Below, piece after piece: positions 3,221 to 48,125 of a stretch of DNA of 64,000 nt (positions are counted from its first letter, which is position 1; every line of letters starts with the position of its first letter). The DNA comes from Elusimicrobia bacterium RIFOXYD2_FULL_34_15 (GTDB taxonomy: Bacteria; Elusimicrobiota; UBA8919). A model generated the notes under the pieces. That model searched no databases. It saw only the letters and a list, made by a program, of their open reading frames with translations, and was not told the origin of the DNA. Both the position numbers and the translations under genes were made by a program. The DNA lies in NCBI GenBank assembly GCA_001800605.1, contig MGVS01000097.1, forward strand, positions 12,694 to 76,693, written 5' to 3'.

Positions 3221-3273
3221 AAACTCACCAATTAACCTATCTACCCTTCTACCTTTTTACCTTTCTACCTAAG

Positions 3274-4399: not shown

Positions 4400-4427
4400 A
4401 AACAAAATACTACTTACTGCACTATTC

Positions 4428-4545
4428 TCTTCTTTCATCCGGACTTTACCGTCGGTATCTGAGTTTCACAGATTCGATCCCATATTTTTTATGGGACTCG
4501 CGGACTTTAACCGCCGATTGGGAATTTCACCCAACCCCGAAGAGT
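4428..4545 (-). promoter_or_regulatory. FMN riboswitch (RFN element) aptamer controlling the rib operon
   Basis: Minus strand reads cttcggggttgGGTGAAATTCCCaatCGGCGGTtAAAGTCCGCGAGtcccat...atgggaTCgAATCtGTGAAAcTCaGAtaCCGACGGTaAAAGTCCGGATGaAAGAaGAGA. This matches the conserved RFN core blocks. A TATAAT lies about 12 nt upstream. Confidence 0.85.
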
Positions 4546-4576
4546 TTTAACTACGATTATAACGATTTTAAAATCT

Positions 4577-4588
4577 GATTACACAGAT
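4577..4588. repeat. 12-mer GATTACACAGAT in the divergent ribD / mntA promoter region
   Basis: Exact match. It overlaps the -35 position relative to the TATAAT upstream of the FMN riboswitch. Confidence 0.8.
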
Positions 4589-5458: not shown

Positions 5459-5629
5459 TCAAATTCTTTCAATACCTTCCGTACGCTTGTACAAATACGA
5501 CTGCATTCTACTACTTGGAGTAAACGAATAATATGCGTTGTAATCCACGCACCCGCACGTAGAAAATATCGTGATAGAGCAGCTGTACCAGTTCTTAAAA
5601 CATTTTACTGCCTTTTCAACTTTATTCAT
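5459..5629 (-). CDS. Cys-rich 56-aa micro-ORF (MNKVEKAVKCFKNWYSCSITIFSTCGCVDYNAYYSFTPSSRMQSYLYKRTEGIERI), not in the ORF track
   Basis: Its ATG overlaps the TGA of the upstream 927-aa gene in an ATGA arrangement, suggesting translational coupling. Four Cys in 26 residues. No homology is recognisable by eye. Confidence 0.3.
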   Translation of the reverse strand: MNKVEKAVKCFKNWYSCSITIFSTCGCVDYNAYYSFTPSSRMQSYLYKRTEGIERI

Positions 5630-8409
5630 AATTTTTTTAGTAATTTGATTTTTTCTTGAATAAACTGATTATTTGGCGATAATTTTAAAGCGGTTTCAAA
5701 TTCCTGAAGTGCTTTGTTATATTTTTTCTGTATATAATAAAAATTTCCAAAATTACTGTGAGCTTCTAAAAGATTTGGATTTATCGTCACAGCTTTCTTG
5801 AATTCTATCTCTGCTTCATCAATTCTATTTGTATCGCACAATAAAATACCAAGATTACAGTGTGCATCTACAAAATTTGGATTTATCTTTATGGCATTTC
5901 TATATTCTTTTTCTGCTTTAGCAATTCGTTTTGAATTATATAACAAGATTCCGAGATTATTGTGCGCATCTGAAAGATTTGGATTTATCTTTATTGCTTT
6001 CCTATATTCTTTCTCCGCTTCATTAATTCTGTTTAATTTGTACAATAAATATCCGAGATTATTGTGCGCATCTGCAGATCTGGGATTTGCTTGGACATAC
6101 TTATAGAAATCAGTTATAGAATTTTGATAGTCACCTACTGATAAATACAGACTACCTCGCTTAAAATACGCCCCGGCATTTTCAGGATTAAATTCAATAA
6201 CCTTATTAAAATCTAATATTGCGTTACTAAAATTATGCACTTTATCATAAGCTACTCCGCGGTAATAATATGCCTTAACATAATTATTATCACGTTTAAT
6301 CGCAAGATTAAAATCAGAAATTGCTTCACTAATTTTACTTTCTTTTAGAAAAGAAGCACCGCGAATAAAATAATCCTTAGCATCTTTGCTTTTTGTAGAT
6401 ATTTTTTTAAATTTAATATCATTTTTTTGTAAAATTGAGGCTTTTTCAAAACATGCTACAGCTTCATGCATCATCTTCAATTTACTCATTGCCCAGCCCT
6501 TACCTTCCCATGCATGAATGTAGTTTGGATTTATTTTTATTGCATTGTCAAAAGCTTTAGACGCATTATCAAAATCATATAACCCATAAAGTTCTTCTCC
6601 TTTTTTGTACCAAGATTCGGCCGATACAGGTTCGTCCTGTTTTGTCTCTGCAGTTTCCTTCTTTCTATACGATTTTAAATTTTGGTAAGGCGAATATTTT
6701 AATAATATTCTTTGTTTTGTTGCTTTTGTGAATTGGTCATCTATGTAAACGGTTAATAAACCCCATTTTTCTGGTGTCCAATCTTTATTTAATGTAATTC
6801 CGGGTATCTTATCTGCTACTTCCCAGCCGGGAAAGTAATTAATATTGATTGGTATTTGCAATTGTTTTTCTTTTATATTTGAAATTTCTACTGAAATCTT
6901 GGATGGTGAAACCCACTCTATTTTTATATCCGGATTTGTGTTAAATATGTCAAGCTTTCCGCTTTTTACTTGGGAATGCCGCAAAAAACCAAACTCATCA
7001 TAACCAAAAATACCATCATAGAATTGCATAATACCTTCGTTTTTTTGAAGATATGTAAACATTATGTCACTTTCAAAACATATTTTATCCTGAATTGAAA
7101 ATAGGTTCCAGTCAGGACCTTTATCATGTTCAAATATTTCATTTTTATTAAAATATGCATTGTTATTAAGCGTGAATATGCTCTGAATATAATCTGTATT
7201 TGGTTTGTTTACTTTGAAGTAATCATAAAATATAAATGTACAAATAATAATTAATATCAGATTGGTTTTTCCCTTAAATATTTTACTGATATTAAAAAGT
7301 GCTTCAGTAGAAAAATATGTTACCGGTAATATTAATAGACCGACAAACCAGGTTGGCATGTGCAGTGAGCCAAGAATTAGATTCTTTGAAAATAGTTTCC
7401 AAAACGGATTTAACCCGCCTGGATAGAGAAATAACGCAACAACAATTACTATAAACATAGAAATACTAAAATTAGGATATCTGTGTTTTTTATATTTGAT
7501 TATGGAAATAATTGCCAATATTAATACAAATATCCCTATATAACAGTTTAATAAATATACTTCCAACGAAGGTGCATATTTATACGGAGTGTCATACCAC
7601 GTCTGATTAGGCCATACAAGAGAAGTAATTAATGTGTGTAAAGTACCTGCCCAGGATTGTGATACATAGCCCATATCTAAGTTTCTCGGAAACCAGGAAA
7701 GTAATTGATATGAAAATATCAATTTTGGTGCTGATAACACTATTGCTAAAAATCCATATATTAAAAATCTTTTTATTTTGTAAAATGTTAAAAAAGATAA
7801 CATTATAATAACTACGGATATTGATGTCGCATTAATGCCTGCGTAAACCATTATTGCAAGCCATACAGGAATAGCGTACGAAAATTTATTATTCTTATAT
7901 GACCACAACAATGCAGAAACAAGATACGGGACATAAACCATGTTTTGAACCCAAAAATGCCCCACCGTCAATTGAGACACTAAATAGCCGGAAAATGTAT
8001 AGACTATTGCTCCAAATAAGCGGCACCAGAAATTATCTATTTTAAGCTGTTTTAAAAGGGTAAACATTCCTAACATACTTATTATTGATAGAGTTACTAT
8101 TGAAATACGGAGAGCTAACCACTGGTTATTTATTAATAATGAGAAAAACTGAGGGATGCTGATAAACATATTTGACGGGTTTGCCCATAAAGGAAATCCT
8201 CCTCCAATGTATGAGCTAAAAAACGGAAATTCGTGATAATACAAAAACGAGATTTTATTGGCAAATAAGTTAGTTGCATCGTAATCAAAATTTCCGAATA
8301 GATATCTATAAGGATATTTAAATAACGAACCCCAAAATAAAAATGAAACCAATATACTGCTCAATATCTCAGGTATGTTATTAAGAATAATTTCTTTTAT
8401 TTTTTTCAT
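5626..8409 (-). CDS. Polytopic membrane protein with a C-terminal TPR array (TMTC / DUF2723-like GT-C fold putative glycosyltransferase)
   Basis: 927 aa. About 12 TM helices in the first ~400 residues, then a soluble domain and at least 8 TPR repeats. 4-nt overlap with the upstream HExxH protein gene. Confidence 0.75.
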   Translation of the reverse strand: MKKIKEIILNNIPEILSSILVSFLFWGSLFKYPYRYLFGNFDYDATNLFANKISFLYYHEFPFFSSYIGGGFPLWANPSNMFISIPQFFSLLINNQWLALRISIVTLSIISMLGMFTLLKQLKIDNFWCRLFGAIVYTFSGYLVSQLTVGHFWVQNMVYVPYLVSALLWSYKNNKFSYAIPVWLAIMVYAGINATSISVVIIMLSFLTFYKIKRFLIYGFLAIVLSAPKLIFSYQLLSWFPRNLDMGYVSQSWAGTLHTLITSLVWPNQTWYDTPYKYAPSLEVYLLNCYIGIFVLILAIISIIKYKKHRYPNFSISMFIVIVVALFLYPGGLNPFWKLFSKNLILGSLHMPTWFVGLLILPVTYFSTEALFNISKIFKGKTNLILIIICTFIFYDYFKVNKPNTDYIQSIFTLNNNAYFNKNEIFEHDKGPDWNLFSIQDKICFESDIMFTYLQKNEGIMQFYDGIFGYDEFGFLRHSQVKSGKLDIFNTNPDIKIEWVSPSKISVEISNIKEKQLQIPININYFPGWEVADKIPGITLNKDWTPEKWGLLTVYIDDQFTKATKQRILLKYSPYQNLKSYRKKETAETKQDEPVSAESWYKKGEELYGLYDFDNASKAFDNAIKINPNYIHAWEGKGWAMSKLKMMHEAVACFEKASILQKNDIKFKKISTKSKDAKDYFIRGASFLKESKISEAISDFNLAIKRDNNYVKAYYYRGVAYDKVHNFSNAILDFNKVIEFNPENAGAYFKRGSLYLSVGDYQNSITDFYKYVQANPRSADAHNNLGYLLYKLNRINEAEKEYRKAIKINPNLSDAHNNLGILLYNSKRIAKAEKEYRNAIKINPNFVDAHCNLGILLCDTNRIDEAEIEFKKAVTINPNLLEAHSNFGNFYYIQKKYNKALQEFETALKLSPNNQFIQEKIKLLKKL

Positions 8410-10437: not shown

Positions 10438-10519
10438 AATATTTTAACTTCAATTCAAAATTAAAAATGTAAAATGTAAAATTTAGGAATAAAACCTTAA
10501 TTTATATTTTTTCCGCTAC

Positions 10520-10592
10520 TAAACCATCAGCGGATCCGCCCCCGCCACTGATACTCTGGCGGGCAAGAACGACTTAGTGGCGGAAACTTTTA
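10520..10592. repeat. GC-rich palindromic element (ccgccactgatactctggcgg ... cttagtggcgg)
   Basis: Same family as 690-712, 11488-11537, 47074-47106 and 61004-61050. Confidence 0.7.
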
Positions 10593-10622: not shown

Positions 10623-11414
10623 TTATTCCGCATCATCTTCCGCGGTTCTGCCGGGTCTGGTGATTCCTCTTTTTGAATTTTTTATAAATTCTACAAATTC
10701 TTTTACTTCTTTTGAAGGGTTGGAAGCGATTATCTGGTCTATCGCCTCAATTACAGTTAATCCGGAATTAAATACTATTTTGTATGCTGATTTAATATCA
10801 CTTACTTGTTTATCGGTAAAACCATTTCTCTTAAGACCAACTATATTTAAACCAATCAATTTTGCTCTATCACCCTGTACCTGACAAAAAGGAGGTATAT
10901 CAAGCGGAACCATAGCCCCGCCGCCAAGCATAGCAAAACGGCCTATTCTTACAAACTGATGTATGGCAACAAGCCCGCTTATAACAGCATTATCGTTCAC
11001 TTCTACATGTCCAGCGAGTGTTGCTGCATTAGACATTATTACGTTATTACCTACTATACAGTCATGCCCCACATGCGAATATGCCTGAAACATACAGTTA
11101 CTTCCTATTTCAGTTATTCCGTGAGCAGTAGTACCGCGATTAAGCGTTACACATTCTCTTACTAAGCAGTTGTTACCGATAACAATTTTAGTTTTTTCGT
11201 TTTTATATTTTAGGTCCTGCGGTGCTGTTCCAATAAAAGCAGATGAATATATTTTGCAATTTTTACCTATTTCCGCATATTCAATTACCGTAAATGCACC
11301 AATCTGCGTTCCACTTTGGATTTTTACATCTTTGCCAATTATAGCATATGGTCCAATTTCTACGTCTTTATCTATTTCTGCTGACTTATCTATTATCGCC
11401 GTTTGATGAATCAT
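10623..11414 (-). CDS. lpxA: UDP-N-acetylglucosamine O-acyltransferase
   Basis: Hexapeptide-repeat LpxA. Homology starts at MIHQTAIID. The track start at 11483 reads into the repeat element, so the start is moved to 11414. Confidence 0.9.
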   Translation of the reverse strand: MIHQTAIIDKSAEIDKDVEIGPYAIIGKDVKIQSGTQIGAFTVIEYAEIGKNCKIYSSAFIGTAPQDLKYKNEKTKIVIGNNCLVRECVTLNRGTTAHGITEIGSNCMFQAYSHVGHDCIVGNNVIMSNAATLAGHVEVNDNAVISGLVAIHQFVRIGRFAMLGGGAMVPLDIPPFCQVQGDRAKLIGLNIVGLKRNGFTDKQVSDIKSAYKIVFNSGLTVIEAIDQIIASNPSKEVKEFVEFIKNSKRGITRPGRTAEDDAE

Positions 11415-11487
11415 AAGCACCCCATAAATTAAACAAGTTAAAATTGAAAGTGAAAAACTAAAAATGAATGTAAAAACCTTCATTTTT

Positions 11488-11537
11488 CCGCCACTGTGAC
11501 TTTGGCGGATCCGCCTACAACTTAGTGGCAGAAACTT
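11488..11537. repeat. GC-rich palindromic element (ccgccactgtgactttggcgg ... cttagtggcag)
   Basis: Family member, see 10520-10592. Confidence 0.7.
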
Positions 11538-11556
11538 TTAATTTGCTTTTTTGCCT

Positions 11557-12876
11557 CTAACTGGGTTTATCTACTAAAACAAAGGTAAATTCAGCTTCTG
11601 TTGCTAATTTGCCTTCAATATACGCACAACCTTTTATCATACCTGTTGATTGTTTTGCTTTAAGAACTTCTATTTCCAGATAAAGTGTATCACCGGGTAA
11701 AACAGGTTTTCTGAATTTTACATTATTTATTGACATAAAATAAGCTAATTTTTTATTTTTCAAATCAGATTTTGAGAGAAGTAATACACAAGAGGTTTGC
11801 GCTAATGCTTCTACAATTAATACTCCCGGCATAATTGGTCTTTCAGGAAAATGCCCCTGAAAAAATGGTTCATCGGCAGAAACACTTTTTATTCCAACTG
11901 CTTTTTTTAATTCTTCAACTATTATTACCTTATCCAAAAAAAGAAAAGGGTATCTATGGGGAATTGTCGCCTTGATTTCGTTTATGTCTACTATTCTGCC
12001 TTCCGGAATCTGCCATGAAGATTTATTTTGAGTCAATTTTTGTCCGGTTGCTTCTGCATAAATCTTTTTTGCAAATTCAGTATTATTTTTATGCCCGCAT
12101 TTTATAGCTGTTATATCCATTTTTAGTGAAGAACCGAGTAATGAAGTGTCTCCGATTAAATCAAGTATTTTATGACGGATAAATTCGTCTTCATACCTTA
12201 ACTGAGTATGAATTTTTTTAGCACCTATAACGATTGCATTTTCTAATGTTCCGCCTTTTGCAAGTCCTTTGCTTTTTAATGCTTCGATTTCATGATCAAA
12301 ACAATAAGTTCTTGCAGATGCAATTTCTTTTTCAAATGTCTCAGGTGTTATATCTATGCTTAAAAACTGGTTTTTTAATAATGGATGATTATACATTATT
12401 GTACAATCAATATGGAATCTATCCGAAGGAGTTGCTGTTATTAAGACATCGCCATTTTTATAAACAATAGGCGAAGAAATAGTTAATCCTTGTTTTTTCT
12501 CTGCAGATAGCTCTGTAATTCCGGCTTTTTTTACCAGTTCTACAAAATGCTTTGCACTTCCGTCGCCGATGGGAGGTTCATTGGAATTCATTTCAATTAT
12601 TAAATTATCAATTCCATATACAGCTAAAGTAGCCAATAAATGTTCTATTGTATGTATAGATGTTTTTTCGTCCAAGCCTACAGTAGTTCCTCGAATTGTA
12701 GATATTACATTTGAAATATCCGCTTTTACTTGGGGACTTCCGGGCAAATCGGTTCTTATAAAAACTATACCTGTATTTTCCTGTGCAGGTTTTAATTTTA
12801 TTGTTACATTATTCCCCGTATGCAGTCCGATACCTGAATATGGTACTTCTTTTAAAATAGTTTTTTGTTTTTCCAT
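11557..12876 (-). CDS. lpxC-fabZ: Fused UDP-3-O-acyl-GlcNAc deacetylase / 3-hydroxyacyl-ACP dehydratase (LpxC-FabZ)
   Basis: 439 aa. LpxC N-terminal half and a FabZ hot-dog C-terminal half (HFPERPIMPGVLIVEALAQ). Confidence 0.9.
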   Translation of the reverse strand: MEKQKTILKEVPYSGIGLHTGNNVTIKLKPAQENTGIVFIRTDLPGSPQVKADISNVISTIRGTTVGLDEKTSIHTIEHLLATLAVYGIDNLIIEMNSNEPPIGDGSAKHFVELVKKAGITELSAEKKQGLTISSPIVYKNGDVLITATPSDRFHIDCTIMYNHPLLKNQFLSIDITPETFEKEIASARTYCFDHEIEALKSKGLAKGGTLENAIVIGAKKIHTQLRYEDEFIRHKILDLIGDTSLLGSSLKMDITAIKCGHKNNTEFAKKIYAEATGQKLTQNKSSWQIPEGRIVDINEIKATIPHRYPFLFLDKVIIVEELKKAVGIKSVSADEPFFQGHFPERPIMPGVLIVEALAQTSCVLLLSKSDLKNKKLAYFMSINNVKFRKPVLPGDTLYLEIEVLKAKQSTGMIKGCAYIEGKLATEAEFTFVLVDKPS

Positions 12877-12993: not shown

Positions 12994-14004
12994 TTATTTA
13001 TTGGATTTGAATTTTTTGAATTCTTCAAATAGTTCCGGCAGTTTTTGAATTAAAGCGTAGATTCTCATAGCTTGTTTATGCGGTCTTGCGGGATAACCCG
13101 AAACCGTTTCTTTAGGCGGTACGTTGCCTATTACACCCGCCTGTGCAGCTATTACCGCTCCATCACCAATTATTAAATGGCCGGCAAGCCCGGCCTGCCC
13201 GGCAATAGTTACCCCACTGCCTATTTTCGTGCTCCCTGATATACCTGACTGCGCGATAATTATAGAATTTTCACCGACTTGTACATTATGTGCTATTTGA
13301 ACAAGATTATCTATTTTTGTTCCCTTACCTATAAAAGTTTTTCCCGTTGTTGCCCTATCAATAGTTACATTTGCACCGATTTCAACATTGTCGCTTATTT
13401 CAACGATACCTATCTGCGGAATTTTTTTAAGTTCATTATTTTCAGGAACGTAACCGAAACCGTCAGAACCGATTACAGCACCCGAATGAATTATAACATT
13501 ATTGCCAATTACAATATTTTCTCTAACAGAAACATTCGAATAAATTAAACAATTATTGCCAATTTTAACATTTCTACCGATATAACAGTTTGGATATATA
13601 ATTGTGTCATTGCCTATCTTAGTATTCTCAGAAATAACTGAAAAATCACTTATACTGACATTATTACCTATCACAGCCAAATCGGAGATTGCAGAATTTT
13701 TAGAAATTCCTAAAGGATGTTTTTCCCTTTCTTTTGCAATAATAATTAGTAATTTTGTATATGAAAGATACGGATTCTTTGAAACTATCGCGGGTATTTT
13801 TACTTTCGATTTCTGATCTTCAGATATTATTATGGCCGAGGCTTTTGTTGAATCTATAAATTGAATATATTTAGAATTTGATATGAATGTAATATCTCCG
13901 TTTTTTGCTTCTGTAATTCCGGCGACATTTGTTATTATTGTGTTTTTATCTCCCGAAACCTCACCACCTATTATTTCTGCAATTTCACCCAAAGTCTTTT
14001 TCAT
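12994..14004 (-). CDS. lpxD: UDP-3-O-(3-hydroxyacyl)glucosamine N-acyltransferase
   Basis: 336 aa. LpxD N-terminal domain plus hexapeptide repeats. Confidence 0.9.
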
Positions 14005-14813
14005 TTAAGTTTTTTAATTACCGTTTCAGTTATATCTTCTGAGTCTTCACCATAAATAAGGTTAGATGAATCAATAATAATAGCCAATCCTCTTTCATTT
14101 GCTGTCTCTTTAATTGCATCATAAATTTTCCCTAAAATATTCTTCTTTACTTTACTATTTATTTCTTTTTCATCCTTTTTAGCACCCGCTATGTAATTTT
14201 CTAAATCTTTTTTTTGCTTCTCAATATTTTTAATTTTTAGAGTAATATCATTTTGTGTAAATGACGGTGAAGAAATTTGAACAGGCTCTATTTTTGTAGG
14301 TTCTATTTTCATTTCATCAAATTTACTGGTTACCGCTGTACTAGTAGAAGCCGCAACGCTTCCGGTGGATTTCACAACCGATCCATAAGAGATATTAAAA
14401 GTTTCGGTTGAACTTTCAACCTGTTCCGTTGAAGTGTTCTCATTATTCGAGCTCTGCATAGCCATTTCTGAAATTTCTTGTTCTCTTTTTGCATATTCAT
14501 ATTTTTTTAATTCTTCTTCCATCCTACCTACTTCATCTTCTGCTGCTTCAATATTTTGCTGAAAGATTTTTATATTATCTTTTTTAATTTTCAAATTTGA
14601 AGACAATTCATCTTTCATTTTTTTTGCTTCAGGATATGCTTCCATTATACGATTCATATCGACAGAACCTATTCTCTGAACAGAAATAGCGGCAGGATAA
14701 ACATCAGTAACGAGCAATGTGTAACGGGTAAAAAGAAAACAGCAAATACCTAATAAAGACAATCCCAATCTTTTTAATTTTTTTCTACAATTAACATTTT
14801 TACTTTTTTTCAT
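14001..14813 (-). CDS. skp: OmpH/Skp-family periplasmic chaperone
   Basis: 270 aa. Signal peptide and coiled-coil. Conserved position between bamA and lpxD. Confidence 0.65.
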
Positions 14814-14912
14814 ATTATTAAATATTTAATAAATACTCTTATCAACCACAGTTATTTTTTCTTTTTCCTTCAATGCGCTCGTTACTCATTACCCATTACC
14901 CGTTACTTCTTA

Positions 14913-22149: not shown

Positions 22150-22215
22150 AGAGTTATCGAATTTACTATTACTCATTACCCATTACCCAGCCTGTCCCGA
22201 CTCATCGGGATTACT
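22150..22215. repeat. RPE-like palindromic element ...cattacccattACCCAGCCTGTCCCGActcaTCGGGATTACtCGTTAC...
   Basis: 38-nt core shared with 36385-36440 and, in inverse orientation, with 49218-49274 inside the cca gene. Confidence 0.8.
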
Positions 22216-24676
22216 CGTTACTGACTTTTGTTTCAGAATATATAGTATTAAATATAAGTTTTTTTAACTCAAACGAATAATCTACATTTATTTTAGTGCT
22301 CTTTGGCATTTTTTTAACAAGAAGTTCTTCCGCAAGCCCATCCTCAAGATATTTTGAAATTACCCTGTTTAACGGACGTGCACCATATTGCGAGTCAAAA
22401 CCCTTTTCAAGCAGAAAATTCTTAGCGGGTTCTGTTAATTCTATTACAAAACCCTGTTGTTTGGTCTTTTTTAGTACCCTTTCGAGCATTATATCCAGAA
22501 TTTTCCGCATATGTTCTTTTTCTAACGGATGGAAAACAATAGTATCATCCAAGCGGTTCAAAAATTCAGGATTAAGCGTTTTCTTTAATTCTTCTATCAC
22601 GGTTTCTTTCATTGATAAAAAATCTTTCTGTGTATTACTATCGGGCTGTGTCATAAAACCAAGCGATTTACCTTTAGATATCTGGCGTGCACCAATATTA
22701 GAAGTCATCAAAATTATTGTATTTTTAAAATCAACTTTATGACCAAGGTTATCAGTTAAAATACCGGTATCCATTATCTGTAATAGAATATTCAGCACAT
22801 CAGGGTGCGCCTTTTCTATCTCATCCAAAAGAACCACAGAATAAGGTTTACGCCTTACCTGTTCGGTAAGCTGACCGCCTTCATCATAACCCACGTAACC
22901 GGGAGGTGCGCCTATAAGATGTGAAACAGAAAATTTTTCCATATATTCAGACATATCAAAACGCACCAACGCATCTTCGTGACCGAACATAAATTCTGCG
23001 AGTGCCCTTGCAAGTTCAGTTTTTCCAACACCAGTTGGTCCCAGAAAAATAAAAGCGCCTATAGGTCTTCTCGGATCTTTTAGACCGGTTCTGGTCCGTC
23101 TTATTGCATGAGAAATAGAAACAACCGCCTCATCCTGGCCTATAATCCTTCTATGTAATTCATCTTCCATTTTTAATAATCTTTCTGATTCTTTCTCGGT
23201 CAACTTCATAAGTGGGATATTTGTCCATTTAGAAACTATATTCGCAACATCCTCACCATTAATTGTTGGTTTTATATGGCTTAAACCCTGTCTCCACTTT
23301 TTTCTTTCTTCAGCTAATACTCTTCTAAGTTCTTCTTCTTTATCTCTCAATTTGGCTGCTTTTTCAAATTCCTGTGAATTAACGGATTTGTCTTTGTCGA
23401 CAACAATATTTTCAATTTCTATTTCCTTGTCTTTAAGTTCCTGCGGTAACGAAGTAAGATTAAGATGAGCTCTGCTTCCTGCTTCATCGACTAAATCAAT
23501 AGCTTTATCCGGTAAATATCTCTCGGTTATATACCTATCCGACAGTTCAACCGCTGCTGAAATAGCTTCATCGGTATATTTTACTTTATGATGTGACTCA
23601 TATTTTTCTTTTAGACCGTGCAGAATTTTTATTGTTTCTTCTACCGACGGCGGATTAACCGTTATCGGCTGAAATCTTCTTTCAAGTGCAGCATCGTGCT
23701 CAATATACTTCCTATATTCCGAGAATGTTGTCGCCCCGATGCATTGTAGTTCACCCCGTGCTAACGGCGGTTTTAACATATTCGATGCATCGATAGCACC
23801 CTCTGCAGCACCGGCACCGATTACCGTGTGTAATTCATCGATAAAAATAATTATGCTATTTTTCGACTGTCTTATTTCGTCAATAATATTTTTTAACCGT
23901 TGCTCAAATTCACCCCTGTATTTTGTACCCGCTACCACACCTGACAAATCAAGAGTAACTATTCTTTTGTTCAAAAGAATTTCCTGGGTATCCTGGTTGA
24001 CAATTCTCTGGGCCAAACCTTCTACAATAGCTGTCTTACCAACACCAGGATCTCCCACTAAAACAGGATTATTTTTTGTCCGTCTTGATAACACTTGAAT
24101 CAATCTGTCGATTTCATTATCTCTGCCGATAACAGGATCGAGTTTGCCCTCTCTCGCCATTTCAGTTAAATCCCTACCAAATTCATCAAGGGTTGGCGTC
24201 TTTGACTTATGTTTATGCTGTGGTAACGGTGGTTGTGATGTTTCTCCCATAAGATTAATAATCTCTTCTTTTACAATGTCATATGAAAGTCCGAAATTTT
24301 CCAAAACAACGGTTGTTTTCAATTCGGTATTTTTCAAAAGTCCTAAAAGAATATGCTCCGTTCCGACATAACTGTGCGCCATTTTCTGTGCTTCTTCTAT
24401 TGAATATTCCAATACTTTTCTTGCTTTCGGAGTTAGAGGTAATTCGCCGTATTGAAGTAAATTATCTCCCAGTGGCAGGGTTTTTTCTATTTCTATTCTT
24501 ATACGCGAAGTATGTATTCCAAGATTTGCTATTATCGTAGCTGCTACACCATCGTCAAGATCAAGCAATCCCAATAATATATGTTCGGGAGTAATAAAAT
24601 CGTGGTTTAATCTCTTCGCCTCTTCCTGCGCAAGTCGTATTACCCTTTGTGCTCTTTCTGTAAATCTATTATACAT
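22211..24676 (-). CDS. clpC: ATP-dependent Clp protease ATP-binding subunit ClpC
   Basis: 821 aa. Two Clp_N repeats, a UVR motif and two AAA+ modules. Confidence 0.9.
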   Translation of the reverse strand: MYNRFTERAQRVIRLAQEEAKRLNHDFITPEHILLGLLDLDDGVAATIIANLGIHTSRIRIEIEKTLPLGDNLLQYGELPLTPKARKVLEYSIEEAQKMAHSYVGTEHILLGLLKNTELKTTVVLENFGLSYDIVKEEIINLMGETSQPPLPQHKHKSKTPTLDEFGRDLTEMAREGKLDPVIGRDNEIDRLIQVLSRRTKNNPVLVGDPGVGKTAIVEGLAQRIVNQDTQEILLNKRIVTLDLSGVVAGTKYRGEFEQRLKNIIDEIRQSKNSIIIFIDELHTVIGAGAAEGAIDASNMLKPPLARGELQCIGATTFSEYRKYIEHDAALERRFQPITVNPPSVEETIKILHGLKEKYESHHKVKYTDEAISAAVELSDRYITERYLPDKAIDLVDEAGSRAHLNLTSLPQELKDKEIEIENIVVDKDKSVNSQEFEKAAKLRDKEEELRRVLAEERKKWRQGLSHIKPTINGEDVANIVSKWTNIPLMKLTEKESERLLKMEDELHRRIIGQDEAVVSISHAIRRTRTGLKDPRRPIGAFIFLGPTGVGKTELARALAEFMFGHEDALVRFDMSEYMEKFSVSHLIGAPPGYVGYDEGGQLTEQVRRKPYSVVLLDEIEKAHPDVLNILLQIMDTGILTDNLGHKVDFKNTIILMTSNIGARQISKGKSLGFMTQPDSNTQKDFLSMKETVIEELKKTLNPEFLNRLDDTIVFHPLEKEHMRKILDIMLERVLKKTKQQGFVIELTEPAKNFLLEKGFDSQYGARPLNRVISKYLEDGLAEELLVKKMPKSTKINVDYSFELKKLIFNTIYSETKVSNE

Positions 24677-29545: not shown

Positions 29546-29579
29546 ATCTGTGTAATCATCCTCTCTTATCTGTGTAATC
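29546..29579. repeat. Two direct copies of ATCTGTGTAATC, 22 bp apart, immediately upstream of the prfB start
   Basis: Exact 12-mers at 29546-29557 and 29568-29579. Confidence 0.8.
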
Positions 29580-30825: not shown

Positions 30826-30950
30826 ATTTTATTTATTATATCATTTTTATATTATTTGTCAAAACAAAAAAGCACCTTTTTATAGGTACTTTTTTATTTG
30901 TGAATTATTAAAAGGCCTGCTCACTGTAGCTTTAGCATAGGCGAACATGC

Positions 30951-30990
30951 TGTATTCTGTGTACTGTGTTCTGTTTTTTAACTGTATCCT
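30951..30990. repeat. Tandem heptamer-type repeats (CTGTATT/CTGTGTA/CTGTGTT)
   Basis: Same family as 53729-53765, 54799-54842 and 58478-58507. Confidence 0.6.
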
Positions 30991-31000
30991 GCTTTTAACA

Positions 31001-32891: not shown

Positions 32892-33048
32892 CCCGTAGGC
32901 CCTGCCTACCGTCAGGCAGGCTCGCCATAGCTTCACTTTATGAAGCGAAGGCGGGCATTATCAAAAATTTGTTCCATTGTTTCATTATTCTATTGTTCTG
33001 AAAGTAGCCGCAGAGCCTGACTGCCGACAGGCAGGCGATAGCTCTGCT
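32892..33048. repeat. GC-rich palindromic elements (cctgcctaccgtcaggcagg family) inside the btuB leader
   Basis: CCTGCC-N8-GGCAGG inverted repeats at 32901-32920 and 33018-33040. Related to 38225-38242, 42683-42700, 48088-48108 and 49642-49662. Confidence 0.65.
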
Positions 33049-33174
33049 AACATTTGGCAAAGCTTACGCTTTGCTGCTACATATTTCAGAACTCCCTCAT
33101 TTCTATGAACTACGAACTCTTTATTTGCATTTTCCACCTCCCTCTCTCTCGAAGAGACCCGTTTATACGGGACT

Positions 33175-33345
33175 AATAACAAATAGGTTTCCTGACTTAG
33201 GTTTTTTGGAATTTCACCTTCCCAGTTCGCCATAGCGACCAGTGGCATTTAAAATTCCCTGCTCCAAATCATTGGAGCATCACCATTACAGTAGCGGGAC
33301 TGTTCCCGAATTTTATCCTTAGACTCCGCTCAGGATAAGCACGGG
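33175..33345 (-). promoter_or_regulatory. Cobalamin (AdoCbl) riboswitch aptamer
   Basis: Minus strand reads ...AAttcGGGAAcaGTCCCGCtACTGTaAtgg...GCCACTGGtcgctatggcgaaCTGGGAAGGTGAAATTCC...AAGTCAGGAaACCTatt. These are the conserved cobalamin-riboswitch core blocks (the CCCGC.ACTGT block, GCCACTG, GGGAAGG, and a B12 box at 33183-33198). Confidence 0.72.
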
Positions 33346-33370
33346 ATTCTCTATTTTGTTAATTTTTATA

Positions 33371-34096
33371 TCACTTTATATTTAACAATATTAACACTAA
33401 CACTTCTGAAATTTCGTTTATCGCACCTAAAGTATCACCGGTAATACCGTTTATTTTCTTTTTAACATATTTTGTAAATATATATGAGAATACTGAAATA
33501 AACAGAAATATTATAATACCTTTAAATTGAAAAACAAAGGTAGTTATTAAAAATGTAATTATTCCTGATATAACAAAATCTTTTTTTGAAATATTACTTA
33601 AAAAGTAATTTCCCAAACCGGTTTCCTTTGCCGGTTTTGATATTCCCATTGATAAAACCATAGCCCATCTTCCAAGAACCGGAAACAAAATTAAAGATGA
33701 ATTGAACAAAGCAGTATCAATATTATTTAATAAAACAAATTTTGAAAGTATTACCAATGCAATACCAATAACTCCCATAGTACCGATATGACTATCATTC
33801 ATAACTTCTAGTATTTCATCTTTATTTTTTCCGGCATATAAACCGTCAAGCGAATCTGCTAGTCCGTCTAAATGCAAACCACCGTTAATTATTATTGTTA
33901 CGGTAATAATCAATAAATCAACTACTATTTTATAAAACACAAATGAGCAACCAAATTTAATTAGAACAAGAATTCCGCCGATAAAAAGTCCGACAACCGG
34001 GAAAAAAGGCAATATATGTTTTATCCCCTGCCTGTATTTTTTTGGCACAGGTATTATTGTCAGAAAACTAATAGCTGAAAATAAATAATTAATCAT
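33371..34096 (-). CDS. cobS: Adenosylcobinamide-GDP ribazoletransferase (cobalamin synthase)
   Basis: 241 aa polytopic membrane protein. Begins MINYLFSAISFLTIIPVP with the conserved DGLAD...GDxxG motif. Confidence 0.88.
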   Translation of the reverse strand: MINYLFSAISFLTIIPVPKKYRQGIKHILPFFPVVGLFIGGILVLIKFGCSFVFYKIVVDLLIITVTIIINGGLHLDGLADSLDGLYAGKNKDEILEVMNDSHIGTMGVIGIALVILSKFVLLNNIDTALFNSSLILFPVLGRWAMVLSMGISKPAKETGLGNYFLSNISKKDFVISGIITFLITTFVFQFKGIIIFLFISVFSYIFTKYVKKKINGITGDTLGAINEISEVLVLILLNIK

Positions 34097-34139
34097 AAAT
34101 TTGCTTACCTTTTACCCGTTACCCATTACTCGTTACCCG

Positions 34140-35207
34140 TTACTGTTTTGTACTTACTCCTGCACTCTCAAATGTCGCCATCTCATCTAAAATTTTAAGC
34201 GAAACATCTATTAAATTCATTGCTAATGCTGAACCCGTTCCTTCACCTAACCGCATACCTAAATTTAAAAGCGGTTTTAAATTTAAATATTCAAGCATAA
34301 TTCTATGCCCTGGCTCTTTTGAACTATGCGCTGCAATCCAATACTGTTTAGCTAATGGTGAAATTTTGTCAGCTATCAAAGCGGCTGCTCCGGATATAAA
34401 GCCATCGATAACAACAGGTATTTTGTAGCTTGCACCTGCAATCATTATACCTGCTAAACCGCCGATTTCATATCCGCCTATCTTTGATAAAATATCGATT
34501 CCGTCATTAAAATCCGGTTTATTTTTTTCTATACCTCTTTTTATAACATCAATTTTATTTTGTAATGCTTTATCATCAATACCTGTTCCCCTGCCGGTTA
34601 CTTTTTCAGGTTCAATATTACAAATCACCGATGCTATGGCTGCAGATGGCGTTGTATTTCCTATGCCCATATCACCCGTTCCAATCAAATCTATTCCGCC
34701 ATTTTTAACTTCTTCTTCAACAAGTTCAATACCTATCTCAATTGACTTAATCGCTTCTTCTCTTGTCATTGCAGGTCCTTTAGTAAAATTCTTCGTCCCA
34801 AAACCAATTTTTTTAACTTTTAACTTTTCACTTTTAACTTGCAGTTCTTCTCCTACTCCCATATCCACAACAACTACTTTTGCTCCAACATGCCTTGCAA
34901 GAACATTTACTCCAGCACCGCCGTTTATAAAATTGTAAACCATCTGGGGTGTTACTTCTTTTGGATATGCGGAAACCCCTTCCTCAACAACGCCGTGGTC
35001 CCCTGCAAGCGTAAAAATAGTTTTATTTTTCAATGAGGGCTTATCTTTTCCTATAATTGCAACTATTTGTTTTGCAACATCTTCGAGTTGTCCCAAAGAA
35101 CCAAGCGGTTTAGTTAAACTATCAAGCCGTTTTTGAGTTTTATCTAAAAGTACTTTATCTAGCGGTTTAGTATTCCTAATAATTTCTTCTATTTTCTTAC
35201 TTGTCAT
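34140..35207 (-). CDS. cobT: Nicotinate-nucleotide--dimethylbenzimidazole phosphoribosyltransferase
   Basis: 355 aa. CobT fold with GEGTG and GGAA motifs. Confidence 0.88.
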   Translation of the reverse strand: MTSKKIEEIIRNTKPLDKVLLDKTQKRLDSLTKPLGSLGQLEDVAKQIVAIIGKDKPSLKNKTIFTLAGDHGVVEEGVSAYPKEVTPQMVYNFINGGAGVNVLARHVGAKVVVVDMGVGEELQVKSEKLKVKKIGFGTKNFTKGPAMTREEAIKSIEIGIELVEEEVKNGGIDLIGTGDMGIGNTTPSAAIASVICNIEPEKVTGRGTGIDDKALQNKIDVIKRGIEKNKPDFNDGIDILSKIGGYEIGGLAGIMIAGASYKIPVVIDGFISGAAALIADKISPLAKQYWIAAHSSKEPGHRIMLEYLNLKPLLNLGMRLGEGTGSALAMNLIDVSLKILDEMATFESAGVSTKQ

Positions 35208-35881: not shown

Positions 35882-36402
35882 TTTAGTCTCCTTTTTATAC
35901 CTGAAATAAAAAAGTAAAATTCGTTTGAATCCTTAGCAAGTATCTGATTTACCCTGCCGATTATATCCCTGAAATCTCTTCCCAATTTATATGGCGGCAC
36001 AACCCCCATCCCCACTTCATTTGAAACTAAAATAACTTTTCCTTTAATTTTCCGCAGTTTTTTAATTAGATTTTTAATATTTTCTATTATCTTATCTTCA
36101 GTATATTTCTTAAACATCCAATTTGAAACTAAGAAAGTTACACAATCAACAATAACACAATCCGCTTTTTCAAACGATTTTAAATGTTTTATAATATCCT
36201 CTGTCTCTTCAATCGTTTTCCAATGTTTTGGCCTTGATTCTTTATGAACTAAAATTCTCTTATTCATTTCTCTATCCGTTATCTTACCGGCAGTTGCAAT
36301 AAAAACAACTTCTTTGCATTTTTCGGCAAGTTCCAAAGCAAAAGTACTCTTCCCTGACCTCACCCCGCCCGATATAAATATAATTTTTCCCATTTTACCC
36401 AT
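35878..36402 (-). CDS. cobU: Adenosylcobinamide kinase / adenosylcobinamide-phosphate guanylyltransferase
   Basis: About 171 aa. P-loop GGVRSGKS. The first ATG overlaps the repeat, so the likely start is the second Met at 36393. Confidence 0.85.
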   Translation of the reverse strand: MGKMGKIIFISGGVRSGKSTFALELAEKCKEVVFIATAGKITDREMNKRILVHKESRPKHWKTIEETEDIIKHLKSFEKADCVIVDCVTFLVSNWMFKKYTEDKIIENIKNLIKKLRKIKGKVILVSNEVGMGVVPPYKLGRDFRDIIGRVNQILAKDSNEFYFFISGIKRRLK

Positions 36403-36440
36403 TACCCAGCCTGTCCCGATGCATCGGGATTACCCGTTAC
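36385..36440. repeat. RPE-like palindromic element, second copy (ttacccattACCCAGCCTGTCCCGAtgcaTCGGGATTACcCGTTAC)
   Basis: See 22150-22215 and 49218-49274. Confidence 0.8.
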
Positions 36441-37224
36441 TTGTTTTATCCCATTGCGGCACCGATAAAATATGCGGTTTACCCGAAACAGGGTTTTTAT
36501 TTACAACAACAACCGTTTTATAAACATATTCTATATTCTGATAAGTCATAACCTCTTCAGGATTGCCCTCTTTATAAATAGCACCGTTTCTCAAAAGTAA
36601 AATCCTGTCGCAATATTCGCTGGCAAGATTCAAATCATGCATAACTATAATAACAGTAACTTTTTTTTCTATATTTAACCTTTTAATAATATCCAAAATT
36701 TCTATCTGATGGCTTATATCCAAATGTGAAGTCGGTTCATCAAGCAATATAAACTTTGATTGCTGGCAAAGTGCACGCGCAATTACAACCCTCTGTTTTT
36801 CTCCGGAAGAAAGTTCATTTATATATCTTTCGGAAAGTCCTTCAATTTCCAGAAGCTTCAAACTTTCTTCAGCAATTTTAAAACCCTCTTCTTCTTCACT
36901 TAAAAATTGCTTCTGGTACGGATATCTTCCCATCAGAACAATTTCTTTTACAGTAAACGCAAATGTCGTATCAACCTCTTCCGGAACAAAAGAAATATTT
37001 CTAGCCCTTTCTTTGGGTTTCATTTTATAAATATCTTTTTCATCCAGTAAAACTTCACCATTTTGAGGATGATAAAATCCGGAAATTGCTCTTAATAACG
37101 TTGATTTTCCGCTTCCGTTCGGACCTATAATACCAACAAATTCATAGTCGGAAACAGTTAAATTTACATCATTAACAGCAACAAAATTATCGTATTTAAC
37201 TACCAAATCATTAACTTTTAACAT
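36430..37224 (-). CDS. btuD: ABC transporter ATP-binding protein, FecE/BtuD type
   Basis: 264 aa. Walker A GPNGSGKST and LSSGEKQRV signature. The C-terminus reads into the repeat element. Confidence 0.85.
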   Translation of the reverse strand: MLKVNDLVVKYDNFVAVNDVNLTVSDYEFVGIIGPNGSGKSTLLRAISGFYHPQNGEVLLDEKDIYKMKPKERARNISFVPEEVDTTFAFTVKEIVLMGRYPYQKQFLSEEEEGFKIAEESLKLLEIEGLSERYINELSSGEKQRVVIARALCQQSKFILLDEPTSHLDISHQIEILDIIKRLNIEKKVTVIIVMHDLNLASEYCDRILLLRNGAIYKEGNPEEVMTYQNIEYVYKTVVVVNKNPVSGKPHILSVPQWDKTSNG

Positions 37225-38215: not shown

Positions 38216-38224
38216 GCCCTAACC

Positions 38225-38275
38225 TGCCTACCGTCAGGCAGGTCTGTGTAATCTCTTTTCTTAATCTGTGTAATC
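38225..38275. repeat. cctgcctaccgtcaggcagg hairpin followed by two copies of (A/G)TCTGTGTAATC, 22 bp apart, immediately upstream of btuC
   Basis: 12-mers at 38242-38253 and 38264-38275. Confidence 0.8.
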
Positions 38276-39095: not shown

Positions 39096-39252
39096 ATTAA
39101 AAACGTAATGTTGAGTAAAGCAACTTAATTCGAGATTCTTCTCCAGATAAATCGGGATCAGAATGACGTCCAAACAAGATGTCATGCTGAGCTATAGTGA
39201 AGCATCTCGACTTATATTCATTATTATAAATATCAATTCTTCTACTTTTTAA

Positions 39253-39264
39253 ATCTGTGTAATC
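39253..39264. repeat. 12-mer ATCTGTGTAATC
   Basis: Exact match, between cobO and btuF. Confidence 0.8.
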
Positions 39265-39784: not shown

Positions 39785-39800
39785 AGTTTGCTCCCTTATT

Positions 39801-39958
39801 AACCCGCCACTGATGCGCCTCCGCCAGTTGGCGGATGGCGGACCGTTGCATGCCCACCTACGCTTTCTTGTCCGCCAAAGTTTCAGTGGCGGAAGTGGCG
39901 GAAGTTGTGGGGCGGGTTAACCCGCCACTGATGCGTTGGCGGGTTAATTTTTGGCAAA
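39801..39958. repeat. Cluster of GC-rich palindromic elements (cccgccactgatgcg..., ccgccaaagtttcagtggcggaagtggcgg, cccgccactgatgcgttggcggg)
   Basis: Multiple CCGCC...GGCGG hairpins. Shares a family with 40177-40231 and 1323-1397. Confidence 0.7.
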
Positions 39959-39960: not shown

Positions 39961-40135
39961 CAAAAATTAAAAAAACCTAGCTCTGAGAAGAGTTAGGCTA
40001 ACTAAACTTTCTCCCCTCGGAGTTTTCGTAACTGATAGACCGGGCTTTACCGTTGCGGGGCAGCTTCCGAATTCCCATTTATACTGAGCAACGTCGAACG
40101 TATCAATGGGTCACGGAATTCCTTCAATTACAAAT
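39961..40135 (-). ncRNA. Candidate structured leader RNA, possibly a divergent cobalamin-type riboswitch, ending in an intrinsic terminator, upstream of the cobO-btuFCD-cobU-cobT-cobS operon
   Basis: Minus strand reads ttgaaGGaattCCgtg...tatAAatGGGAAttcGGaaGctgCCCCGCaACgGTaAAGcccgg... This partly resembles the GGGAA...CCCGC.ACTGTAA core of cobalamin riboswitches. It ends in CCTAaCTCTtctcAGAGcTAGG plus TTTTTTTAATTTTTT (39961-39996). No clear B12 box. Confidence 0.35.
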
Positions 40136-40176
40136 TATTTTAAAAACGATTAAAACTGATTAAAAGAACTGATTAT

Positions 40177-40231
40177 TCACCCGCCAAAGATTCCTTGTCC
40201 GCCGATGTTTTAGTGGCGGAAGTGGTGGGCA
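40177..40231. repeat. GC-rich palindromic element (ccgccaaagattccttgtccgccgatgttttagtggcggaagtggtggg)
   Basis: Family member, see 39801-39958. Confidence 0.65.
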
Positions 40232-40282
40232 TAGATTATTATATAAAAATCAAAAAACAAGTCAAGTGAAAAAAATTTATAC

Positions 40283-40340
40283 TGCCGCCTTTGGCGAGCC
40301 TCGCCCCCTTGGGGCGGGAGCCAAACCAAGTCGAAGTATC
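40283..40340. repeat. Direct repeat copy 1 (ctgccgcctttggcgagcctcgcccccttggggcgggagcc...agtcgaagtatc)
   Basis: About 85% identical to 45623-45685. Together they bracket the PHP-PhoH2-RNase J-GIY-YIG block. Confidence 0.75.
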
Positions 40341-42543: not shown

Positions 42544-42638
42544 ATTATTAGAACCTCTCTTTTCAATGTTGCTATTTTACCATTTGACTTATAAAAGTCA
42601 AGAAAAAATATAAAACAACGACTAAGACAGATTAAGTT

Positions 42639-42803
42639 GTCATTGCGAAGCCGATAAAATCGGCTGTGGCAATCCCGAAGGTTGCGAACCTGCCTGACGG
42701 TAGACAGACGGAGTGATCTGTCCTGCGTAGCTTTAGCGAAGTAGGAAGCAATCACATGGGATTGCTTCGTCATCCCGTTTTTTACGGGATTTCTCGCAAT
42801 GAC
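42639..42803. mobile_element. MITE-like element: 165 bp bounded by 10-bp terminal inverted repeats GTCATTGCGA...TCGCAATGAC, with internal palindromes (gccgataaaatcggc, cccgttttttacggg)
   Basis: Perfect 10-bp TIRs at 42639-42648 and 42794-42803. The body is GC-richer than its surroundings and has no coding capacity. Confidence 0.45.
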
Positions 42804-45557: not shown

Positions 45558-45584
45558 TGTAATTCCTCCTAATATCAACTTCCG

Positions 45585-45685
45585 CCAAGTTCCAACCCCG
45601 GGTTGGAACTTTGGCAACTTGTCTGCCGCCTATGGCGAGCCTAGCCCCTTTGGGGCGGGAGCCTATTAAGCAGTCGAAGGATTAT
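45585..45685. repeat. Palindrome ccaaccccgggttgg plus direct repeat copy 2 (ctgccgcctatggcgagcctagcccctttggggcgggagcc...cagtcgaaggatt, 45623-45685)
   Basis: See 40283-40340. Confidence 0.75.
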
Positions 45686-46942: not shown

Positions 46943-47013
46943 GAGCGGGTGATGGGAATCGAACCCACGTTTCAAGCTTGGGAAGCTTGCATACTACCAT
47001 TGTACTACACCCG
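46943..47013 (-). tRNA. tRNA-Gly (anticodon CCC)
   Basis: Minus strand: GCGGGTGTAGTACAATGGTAGTATGCAAGCTTCCCAAGCTTGAAACGTGGGTTCGATTCCCATCACCCGCT. 7-bp acceptor stem, anticodon loop TTCCCAA, T-loop GGTTCGATTCC. Confidence 0.85.
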
Positions 47014-47073
47014 CAGAAATTCAATTAAAAATTAAAAATTAGAAATTCAAAATTGTGGTTGTTTTTTATTTAA

Positions 47074-47106
47074 TCCCCGCCAGCCACTAAGTCATTGGCG
47101 GGTAAA
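47074..47106. repeat. GC-rich palindromic element (cccgccagccactaagtcattggcggg)
   Basis: Stem CCCGCCA / TGGCGGG, family of 690-712. Confidence 0.65.
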
Positions 47107-48062: not shown

Positions 48063-48125
48063 ACAATTCTCCGCCCCTAAGGGGCGAGACCCTGACTACC
48101 GTTAGGCAGGCTCGCCCATCGGGCG
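48063..48125. repeat. Direct repeat A (ccgcccctaaggggcgagaccctgactaccgttaggcaggctcgcccatcgggcgggc)
   Basis: Differs by 2-3 nt from 49617-49682. The two copies bracket the cca gene precisely. Confidence 0.8.

Follow-up and report, generated by a model that had tools for sequence, protein, structure and literature searches.

Repetitive extragenic palindromic (REP) sequences occur as dimers, can be nested in other palindromes, can supply stop codons and are sometimes intragenic, and some families have no dedicated transposase (PMC3733652). In the GTAG and CGTC super-families of REPs, one end bears an unpaired tag of four nucleotides (Di Nocera et al. 2013, PMC3733652). The stretch analysed here, 64 kb of the Elusimicrobia metagenome-assembled genome (MAG) RIFOXYD2_FULL_34_15 and referred to as the window, has most of its gene junctions occupied by GC-rich hairpins or by arrays of 7-9-nt tandem repeats; copy counts refer to this window. 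These sequences are probably very small, non-coding stem-loop repeats of the kind represented by REPs and bacterial interspersed mosaic elements (BIMEs) and by the small dispersed repeats (SDRs) and short tandemly repeated repetitive sequences (STRRs) of the Nostocaceae, which have colonised transcribed spacers as selfish, non-autonomous DNA. One of the hairpin families, here called A, has a core that is found in two phyla.

As in the REP/BIME systems of E. coli, Pseudomonas and Stenotrophomonas (SMAG), the palindromes measure 20-40 bp and lie densely between co-directional genes as singlets, inverted dimers and mosaic clusters, with nesting, supply of stop codons, intragenic copies and misannotated N-termini. 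They differ from these systems in having no consistent GTAG or CGTC tag, in a 9-11-nt loop with conserved bases and in their placement within 7-9-nt tandem arrays, as well as in their AT-rich Elusimicrobia host and in the identical core common to Omnitrophota. Because the tag is lacking, the repeats fall outside the strictly tagged REP super-families and are classed here as small dispersed palindromic repeats. In the REPIN-RAYT systems, where RAYT denotes a REP-associated tyrosine transposase (Bertels & Rainey 2011, PMC3116915; Nunvar et al. 2010), inverted doublets likewise form one long hairpin, as they do at 11484-11535, at 61003-61048 and in many Elusimicrobiota loci. Strand-asymmetric hairpins and the lack of a target-site duplication at the sole clean indel are further similarities. 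In contrast to REPIN-RAYT, no RAYT was found in the scanned loci, many units are singlets or nested triplets, and several unrelated hairpin families occur together.

The SDR/STRR repeats of the Nostocaceae, reportedly described by Elhai and colleagues in 2008, are hairpin units of 21-27 nt with no known mobiliser that are polymorphic for presence and absence, nested and linked with heptamers. The window repeats resemble them in being small hairpins that differ between relatives, are nested and are associated with heptamer arrays. SDR5 is a short mobile element and SDRs have been reported only in Nostocaceae (PMC5861425), whereas the present repeats belong to different phyla, have different sequences and include a core that crosses phylum boundaries. 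The Rickettsia palindromic elements (RPEs) provide a parallel for the in-frame palindrome at 49224-49273 in a loop of the conserved CCA-adding enzyme, but RPEs are CGTC-tagged or longer (RPE-1), and only this one intragenic case was seen in 64 kb. Miniature inverted-repeat transposable elements (MITEs) such as Correia/NEMIS, ERIC and RUP, and the IS200/IS605-derived PATEs, are similarly non-autonomous, structured, intergenic and co-transcribed. A MITE identity was rejected: MITEs measure 70-300 bp and have 15-30-bp terminal inverted repeats and target-site duplications, whereas the window units of 23-30 nt have neither feature, and a clean indel of 58 nt shows no duplication. Literature searches for Elusimicrobia together with REPs, and for the literal repeat sequences, returned nothing relevant.

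Hairpin families in the spacers of the window

The window has a GC content of 30-38% (about 33%) and a steadily negative GC skew, and nearly all of its genes lie on the minus strand. Its LpxC-FabZ protein matches one from 'Elusimicrobia bacterium RIFOXYD2_FULL_34_15' with 100% identity. After correction of gene starts, intergenic DNA amounts to 6.3 kb (9.8%) and contains 26 GC-rich perfect hairpins with stems of at least 6 bp, against 1.35 expected from Markov simulations (maximum 5 in 100). Coding DNA has 4 against 4.6 expected. Thus 26 of 30 such hairpins are intergenic and the repeats are almost confined to non-coding DNA, as is characteristic of REPs (imperfect palindromes of 20-40 bp in many extragenic copies). 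Every motif family tested is far more abundant than expected by chance or after shuffling: the relaxed A-type pattern CCGCC-n11-GGCGG has 15 matches (0.25 expected), CCCGCCA alone 17 (2.75), the B-type sequence CCTGCCTACCGTCAGGCAGG 6 (none expected; at 32901, 33016, 38223, 42689, 48091 and 49645), the TTACYCR tandem repeats 20 (0.58) and GATTACACAGAT 11 copies (0.35).

A preliminary description had listed repeats at a number of positions, all of which have the contents described, and had placed them at almost every junction and directly against start codons. The first generalisation is overstated, although most junctions are indeed affected: among 39 intergenic gaps of at least 15 nt, GC-rich hairpin modules occur in 18, short tandem arrays in 21 and either of them in 30, and about 40% of all intergenic bases are repeat. 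The second describes a part of the picture, in that 8 of 25 repeat blocks lie within 14 nt of the downstream start codon; the upstream stop codon is adjoined at least as often, lying no more than 32 nt away from 14 of the 25. REPs favour spaces between unidirectional or convergent genes, near the 3′ end of the ORF upstream; the window genes are all co-directional and offer no divergent gaps for comparison.

At least four hairpin families occur side by side. The A family is YCCGCCA, a 9-nt loop and TGGCGGR; the B family is CCTGCC-TACCGTCA-GGCAGG; the C family is CGCCCC-nnn-GGGGCG with GGCGAG/CTCGCC partners; and the D family is TCCCGA-nnnn-TCGGGA. They are accompanied by 7-9-nt tandem arrays of TTACYCR, CTGTATC, AACCTAT, CACAATCG, ACCTTTCT and GATTACACA. 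Units of 20-30 nt combine into composites of 45-150 nt, and dispersed copies are 92-97% identical to each other and occur in both orientations. The A-type units are found as singlets, inverted doublets and nested triplets, and the inverted doublets are predicted to fold as one long hairpin (z-score about -4.5 at 11484-11535). The arrangement of doublets (11484-11535, 61003-61048) and composites (10509-10590, 39799-39946, 48070-48128, 49623-49680) is BIME-like. Hairpins also sit within arrays: D in TTACCCA heptamers, a triple hairpin in CACAATCG octamers, and an A hairpin with a CAAGCA tail in TTACTCG heptamers in the window and in GATACAG heptamers in L134 (L numbers designate loci of other genomes). 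Modules can be exchanged: the first hairpin, combined with the same B hairpin, is of the C type in the window and of the A type in L137. This bears out the mix-and-match structure noted in the preliminary description. Its comparison with unfamiliar REP/BIME- or RPE-like families gains support from this modularity, from the in-frame copy in the CCA-adding enzyme gene and from the absence of any Rfam 15 match to the repeats, even at E-values up to 10 on short stretches.

The stems of the A family are selected for pairing. Across 31 A-type units 95.4% of the stem cells are paired; the outer pair covaries (U-A in 18, C-G in 11), a second pair has changed from C-G to U-A in a compensatory manner, and none of 500 shuffles reached the observed score. 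A function as binding sites in double-stranded DNA, whether for a global regulator or, along the lines proposed for BIMEs, for a nucleoid-associated protein, gyrase or IHF, would agree with the near-perfect 23-bp palindrome of the Omnitrophota core, which is perfect in two loci (L031 and L045), and with the GATTACACAGAT arrays spaced at about 21 nt in both phyla. It is nonetheless improbable, since the Elusimicrobia loops are not palindromic and the stems covary while the sequence changes, as expected if pairing and not a fixed recognition sequence is retained. Moreover, several unrelated hairpin families behave alike, and no protein emerged as a candidate. Being GC-rich stem-loops that follow stop codons, the repeats also bring to mind intrinsic transcription terminators or attenuators. 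This explanation is very improbable: none of 36 hairpins is followed on the sense strand by a U-run (0-3 T in the 9 nt downstream), the hairpins lie in both orientations, and they occur within obvious operons (rib, lpx, cob/btu and opp-like).

Presence, absence and replacement among relatives

Comparison with related genomes shows the repeats to be present, absent or replaced at orthologous junctions. In the lpx operon the gaps are 0-20 nt in L001 and L112, which have 76-81% LpxC identity with the window, versus 142 and 185 nt in the window, where they are filled by A composites. The A doublet at 11484-11535 is missing from both relatives. The composite between lpxA and lpxI (10509-10590) is missing at that junction in L111, L001 and L112. 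The gap is 15-17 nt in L001 and L112, and in L111, which has about 87% DNA identity with the window, it consists of TAGTGCGA octamers that cannot be aligned with the A composite they stand in place of. L111 has the A doublet between lpxC and lpxA too, but here its sequence is 100% identical to that of the window for at least 870 nt (window 11134-12000+), a tract that runs from the 3′ part of lpxC-fabZ across the spacer into the 5′ part of lpxA. Against the background of about 87% identity this tract indicates recent recombination between the lineages. Purifying selection on the identical spacer was considered and dropped, because the spacer belongs to the recombined tract.

The triple hairpin at 49623-49680 is a clean 58-nt insertion relative to L134, with nearly identical flanks and no target-site duplication, and lies within an octamer unit upstream of the gene for the CCA-adding enzyme. 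This gene (48168-49580, minus strand) itself carries the D element at 49224-49273, in frame in the loop that follows RRDFTINA in the PolyA_pol head domain. The same loop contains GATACAG heptamers and an A hairpin in L134, CAGATTG heptamers and another hairpin in L135, and no insert in P0251, the shortest homologue. A module is thus tolerated in frame in a protein loop, and the RPE-like situation of a palindrome in a conserved protein that is missing from an orthologue is found here.

The A core was searched for with a pattern of 19 specified bases in a collection of species-representative genomes, and at least 108 stretches matched, against a chance expectation estimated here at about 4 at uniform base composition. 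The taxon counts rest on the 80 titled matches among these: Omnitrophota account for 44 loci in 13 genomes, Elusimicrobiota for 16 loci in 7 genomes (33-60% GC) and Planctomycetales for 3 matches, and several of the remaining 17, which stand isolated in genomes of 54-73% GC, look like chance matches. The core CCCGCCACTGAnnCnnTGGCGGG is present in Elusimicrobiota (at least 9 genomes, counting those of the window and L001) and in Omnitrophota (at least 13). No match to the A core was found in viral contigs. The B, D-like and array modules are present in relatives as well, and the families other than A look lineage-restricted; a single metagenome scan with a B-type pattern gave two loci, which shows mosaicism and says nothing of copy number. 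The repeats are therefore not unique to the window; had they been, the preliminary description would have taken this to point to an assembly artefact. The source is indeed a MAG, and contigs assembled for this organism from short reads stop at repeat blocks. Yet the same junction sequence recurs, 100% identical, in an independent assembly, and numerous independent assemblies contain the families, as does a complete chromosome (OY969767.1, a complete genome rich in the A hairpin), leaving an assembly or binning artefact with a negligible probability.

In Elusimicrobiota the A core usually opens an inverted doublet as its first half. In three loci, L032, L084 and L093 (Elusimicrobia RIFOXYA2_FULL_47_53 and others), A hairpins form head-to-tail arrays with a period of 27 nt, made up of the 23-nt hairpin and a 4-nt CTGA or CTGC linker. 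Clustered regularly interspaced short palindromic repeat (CRISPR) arrays were rejected as an identity, since the copies are dispersed and these tandem cases have no spacers. In Omnitrophota the core lies between the conserved flanks TCAATTCG...CTCATTGA, just upstream of a Shine-Dalgarno sequence and ATG, and is found in either orientation relative to these flanks (12 versus 5).

Strand asymmetry, a possible RNA function and the search for a mobiliser

The repeats may instead be selected RNA elements, that is, intercistronic or 5′-untranslated-region (5′-UTR) stem-loops for mRNA protection, processing or translation, whose repetition reflects reuse of one design. All of them lie in transcribed spacers of co-directional genes, often no more than 32 nt from the upstream stop or abutting a Shine-Dalgarno sequence; their stems covary and the predicted structures are stable. 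Omnitrophota copies are stereotyped in front of the Shine-Dalgarno-ATG, for example in L069 before a gene whose first codons suggest dnaK, and at both B12 riboswitches (the second sub-threshold) repeat hairpins lie between aptamer and start codon. REPs are known to stabilise mRNA (PMC3733652). This explanation is unlikely all the same, as orthologous junctions of close relatives have no repeats or unrelated modules, the housekeeping operons of L001 and L112 manage without the hairpins, one copy is in frame in a coding region, and the elements occur in both orientations with a loop that flips relative to the mRNA. The flipping of the loop relative to the oriented Omnitrophota flanks argues specifically against a loop-specific RNA function.

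The distribution of imperfect pairs bears on the same question. When the A stems are read in the CCGCCACT... orientation, their non-Watson-Crick positions are A.C/C.A in 24 cases versus G.T/T.G in 8. In the window the count is 8 versus 1 in favour of the complementary reading, with the elements split between sense and antisense, which means that the asymmetry tracks the element and not the transcribed strand or the mRNA. Together with the flipping loop, the strand asymmetry suggests that what is recognised is one strand of the DNA and not the mRNA.

For selfish, non-autonomous insertional repeats, the reading preferred here, copying may depend on a trans-acting enzyme that reads the hairpin in one of the two DNA strands, most likely an HUH/Y1 enzyme (IS200/RAYT-like) acting by 'peel-and-paste', which leaves no target duplication. 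Insertion would go preferentially into existing repeats and hairpin loops. In operons the copies would be co-transcribed as stable hairpins without causing termination, and any effects on mRNA stability or translation would be secondary.

A Y1 gene was sought by tblastn with IS608 TnpA and E. coli RayT sequences, and with a hidden Markov model (HMM) built from 118 IS200 transposases. Several results weigh against mobile DNA. The search of the window and of 108 hairpin-bearing loci, about 0.86 Mb, yielded no Y1 or RAYT gene apart from one IS200 (L015/L094), and the IS200 HMM revealed no further Y1 genes among all six-frame peptides. The flanks of the 14 A units of the window and of about 110 in other genomes show no consistent GTAG/CGTC tag; GTAG adjoins only two units, at 32895 and 60418. 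A conserved target sequence was not found either. The Omnitrophota A hairpin often keeps a constant spacing to the Shine-Dalgarno sequence that follows it, within its conserved flanks, and this position could reflect a selected 5′-UTR function. The counts behind the strand asymmetry are small and partly non-independent, and with two genomes insertion and deletion cannot be told apart at an indel.

The IS200 TnpA of L015, which lies beside an A hairpin, was rejected as the mobiliser: 20 homologous insertion sequence copies have end hairpins of their own, none of them A, and the L015 copy landed in a repeat block. These left- and right-end hairpins, CCCCGCC-TGTAAA-GGCGGGG and CCACGCC-TGTAAA-GGCGTGG, differ from the A type. 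In the Omnitrophota assembly JBDRMG01 the IS200 lies inside the repeat block (L015 1-600, L094 1-190), its tnpA has an in-frame stop and the assembly is broken there. The end stems CCCCGCC/GGCGGGG resemble the A stem, and L134 has a solo hairpin like the right-end hairpin of IS200 that adjoins a truncated A hairpin. Multi-copy protein families near the hairpins are ordinary housekeeping ones, with no transposases among them. Small GIY-YIG genes near the A hairpin in four loci were discarded as candidates, being too few and too inconsistent in placement to be implicated.

It is possible, if doubtful, that the A hairpin (CCCGCCA-CTGAnnCnn-TGGCGGG) and its companions are RAYT-free mobile hairpins of 23-30 nt that move horizontally between Elusimicrobiota and Omnitrophota, travelling with the 7-9-nt arrays or generating them. 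The arrays could, for example, be footprints of repeated insertion and excision. If so, the repeats would be a second and phylogenetically broad case of the SDR/STRR phenomenon.

Modules along the window and false gene starts

The A family is represented by a singlet CCCGCCA-CTGATACTT-TGGCGGG at 689-711, with a predicted folding energy of -12.8 kcal/mol (z-score -3.3), by a hairpin with the opposite loop orientation at 1342-1364, upstream of the true ribH start at 1310 and translated in a TTG-started open reading frame (ORF), and by a hairpin with a 13-nt loop at 47076-47102 that adjoins the tRNA-Gly gene. The nested composite at 10509-10590, which the preliminary description had flagged, consists of three units (10512-10534, 10541-10563 and an outer arm ending at 10583) and is predicted to fold as one long hairpin enclosing two hairpins (z-score -3.8 to -4.6). 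The REPIN-like doublet at 11484-11535 separates lpxC-fabZ from lpxA. The large composite at 39799-39946 (A-type parts at 39803, 39820-39842, 39871-39893 and 39921-39943; z-score -3.3 to -5.2) lies immediately upstream of the cobO/btuR start, and at 40180-40229 an A-type unit is contained in the loop of a second A-type hairpin. The hairpin with a CAAGCA tail in its TTACTCG heptamer array is at 52026-52077, and this hairpin-tail pair is the one shared with L134. At 60350-60452 two A-type hairpins (60366-60393 and 60424-60451) surround another hairpin (60397-60420) and overlap the 5′ part falsely added to the ORF at 59912. The block at 61000-61110 comprises the doublet 61003-61048, heptamers and a short CCCGCC-ATA-GGCGGG hairpin with a CAAGCA tail.

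Hairpins of the B type are found at 32893-32930, 8 nt upstream of the start codon at 32884, in imperfect form at 33008-33046, downstream of the cobalamin riboswitch aptamer, and at 38219-38248, where GATTACACAGAT repeats follow. The triple-hairpin module of C-type, B-type and GCTCGCCC/GGGCGGGC hairpins at 48070-48128 is 96.6% identical to 49624-49682; its second copy, at 49623-49680, lies in an octamer array and has a fold z-score of -4.0 to -4.6. The C-type composite GGCGAGCCT-CGCCCC-nnn-GGGGCG at 40282-40322 is 92.7% identical to 45623-45663, part of a C-type composite with a further hairpin (45578-45676). The D element, in which TTACCCA heptamers enclose the TCCCGA-nnnn-TCGGGA hairpin, overlaps the stop codon of the upstream gene at 22176-22222. 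In its second copy, at 36395-36441, the heptamers provide both the stop codon that ends one gene and the first ATG of the gene that follows, and the third, at 49224-49273, is inverted and encodes PITQPVPTSRDYALPV. A mosaic block of GATTACACAGATTA, a variable hairpin and an ATCCCG-ATTTAT-CGGGAT hairpin occupies 729-839 and is repeated at 60460-60543.

Among the arrays, TTACYCR heptamers follow a stop codon immediately at 14880-14910 (plus strand), with further arrays of this family at 1371-1397, 22167-22194, 34103-34145, 36383-36407 and 61053-61076; all intergenic arrays have the same orientation. CTGTATC heptamers at 53729-53766 (plus strand) fill a gene junction of 48 nt and recur at 30943-30991 and 54792-54842. 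The CACAATCG/CACTATCG octamer array that hosts the triple hairpin is at 49591-49622 (plus strand), with others at 48129-48150 and 62934-62975, and ACCTTTCT octamers are at 3235-3270. Nine-mer arrays of GATTACACAGAT(TA) at 113-174, 729-742, 4577-4588, 29546-29579, 38242-38275, 39253-39264 and 60462-60473 occur in both orientations, often as pairs about 21 nt apart, and also in the Omnitrophota loci L010, L038 and L052; they could be protein-binding sites or a further repeat family.

Only three known RNAs reach the Rfam threshold in the window: the FMN riboswitch at 4423-4548, the cobalamin riboswitch at 33166-33393 and, at 46944-47014, tRNA-Gly. At the canonical B12 riboswitch two B-type hairpins precede the gene start at 32884. 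A second cobalamin riboswitch at 39988-40169 (minus strand), upstream of cobO/btuR, scores below threshold (22 bits versus a gathering score of 31.5, E-value 0.18), and the A-type composite 39799-39946 separates its aptamer from the cobO/btuR start codon. These riboswitches may have recruited the repeat hairpins as parts of their expression platforms. The segment 44724-47014 contains tRNA-Gly, an 84-aa GIY-YIG gene, a HAD-family gene and the GIY-YIG/DUF4357 gene between a GAF-PAS gene and a metallo-beta-lactamase-fold gene; since the latter two adjoin in L135, it may be an inserted islet with dense repeats on its flanks. The 102-nt tandem repeat at 5741-6073 (3.3 copies, 75% matches) is of another nature, being a 34-aa protein repeat within a 927-aa ORF (gene 5626-8409) and unrelated to the intergenic families.

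The preliminary description had suggested that predicted ORFs run on into the repeats and that such extensions can mimic signal peptides. The extension itself proved correct for ribH, lpxA, btuF and the GIY-YIG gene, and for the CCA enzyme in addition. In these genes, in the GAD-domain gene and in others, the first start codon after the stop falls within or upstream of repeats, and the true starts lie 6-30 codons further downstream with GGAGG-type Shine-Dalgarno sequences. The false extensions amount to 13 codons in ribH, 30 in btuF, 20 in the GIY-YIG/DUF4357 ORF (where the C-type composite 45578-45676 is translated), 10 in the CCA enzyme, 8 in the GAD-domain gene at 59912 and 6 in the ORF at 51174. 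In lpxA, 23 extra codons read MKVFTFIFSFSLSILTCLIYGVL, which resembles a signal peptide, and LpxA is annotated with 263 aa in relatives versus 286 aa for the window ORF. The 89-aa ORF 42504-42773 is repeat sequence throughout and lies among clustered GTCATTGCGAG...GAAGCAATC-type palindromes (42504-42800), in which a B-type hairpin is embedded. Such palindromes and those of the form GTCATTCTGA...GAAGAATC (42504-42800 and 39096-39185 in the window; L001, L013, L059 and L098) yield spurious ORFs, and the GTCATTGCGAG...GAAGCAATC family surrounds a central A hairpin in L001, L013 and L098. The OmpH-like ORF at 14001-14813 has a heptamer-like sequence at 14707-14741, within its first 40 codons and inverse to the intergenic TTACYCR arrays; in relatives the annotated N-terminus of this gene is variable (183-274 aa), and the start of the window ORF may be mis-called too. 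In Omnitrophota the same gene-start artefact causes the A hairpin to be translated as 'SPATESMAG'.

These observations have practical and biological consequences. Gene callers run into the repeats and produce false N-termini, some of them signal-peptide-like, as well as wholly spurious ORFs, so that the A hairpin enters protein databases as peptides such as PATESMAG, and the repeats break short-read assemblies. REP/BIME-type elements are now extended to Elusimicrobiota and Omnitrophota, and a 23-nt hairpin core can be common to two phyla over a range of 33-60% GC. Here the hairpins and the short tandem arrays act together as a single modular system, and its turnover outpaces that of the neighbouring genes. 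The system is moderately unusual in having a core found in more than one phylum, a close coupling of hairpins to tandem arrays and a rapid turnover of modules. A mobiliser, if found, would make these genomes tractable for studying how the smallest bacterial repeats move.

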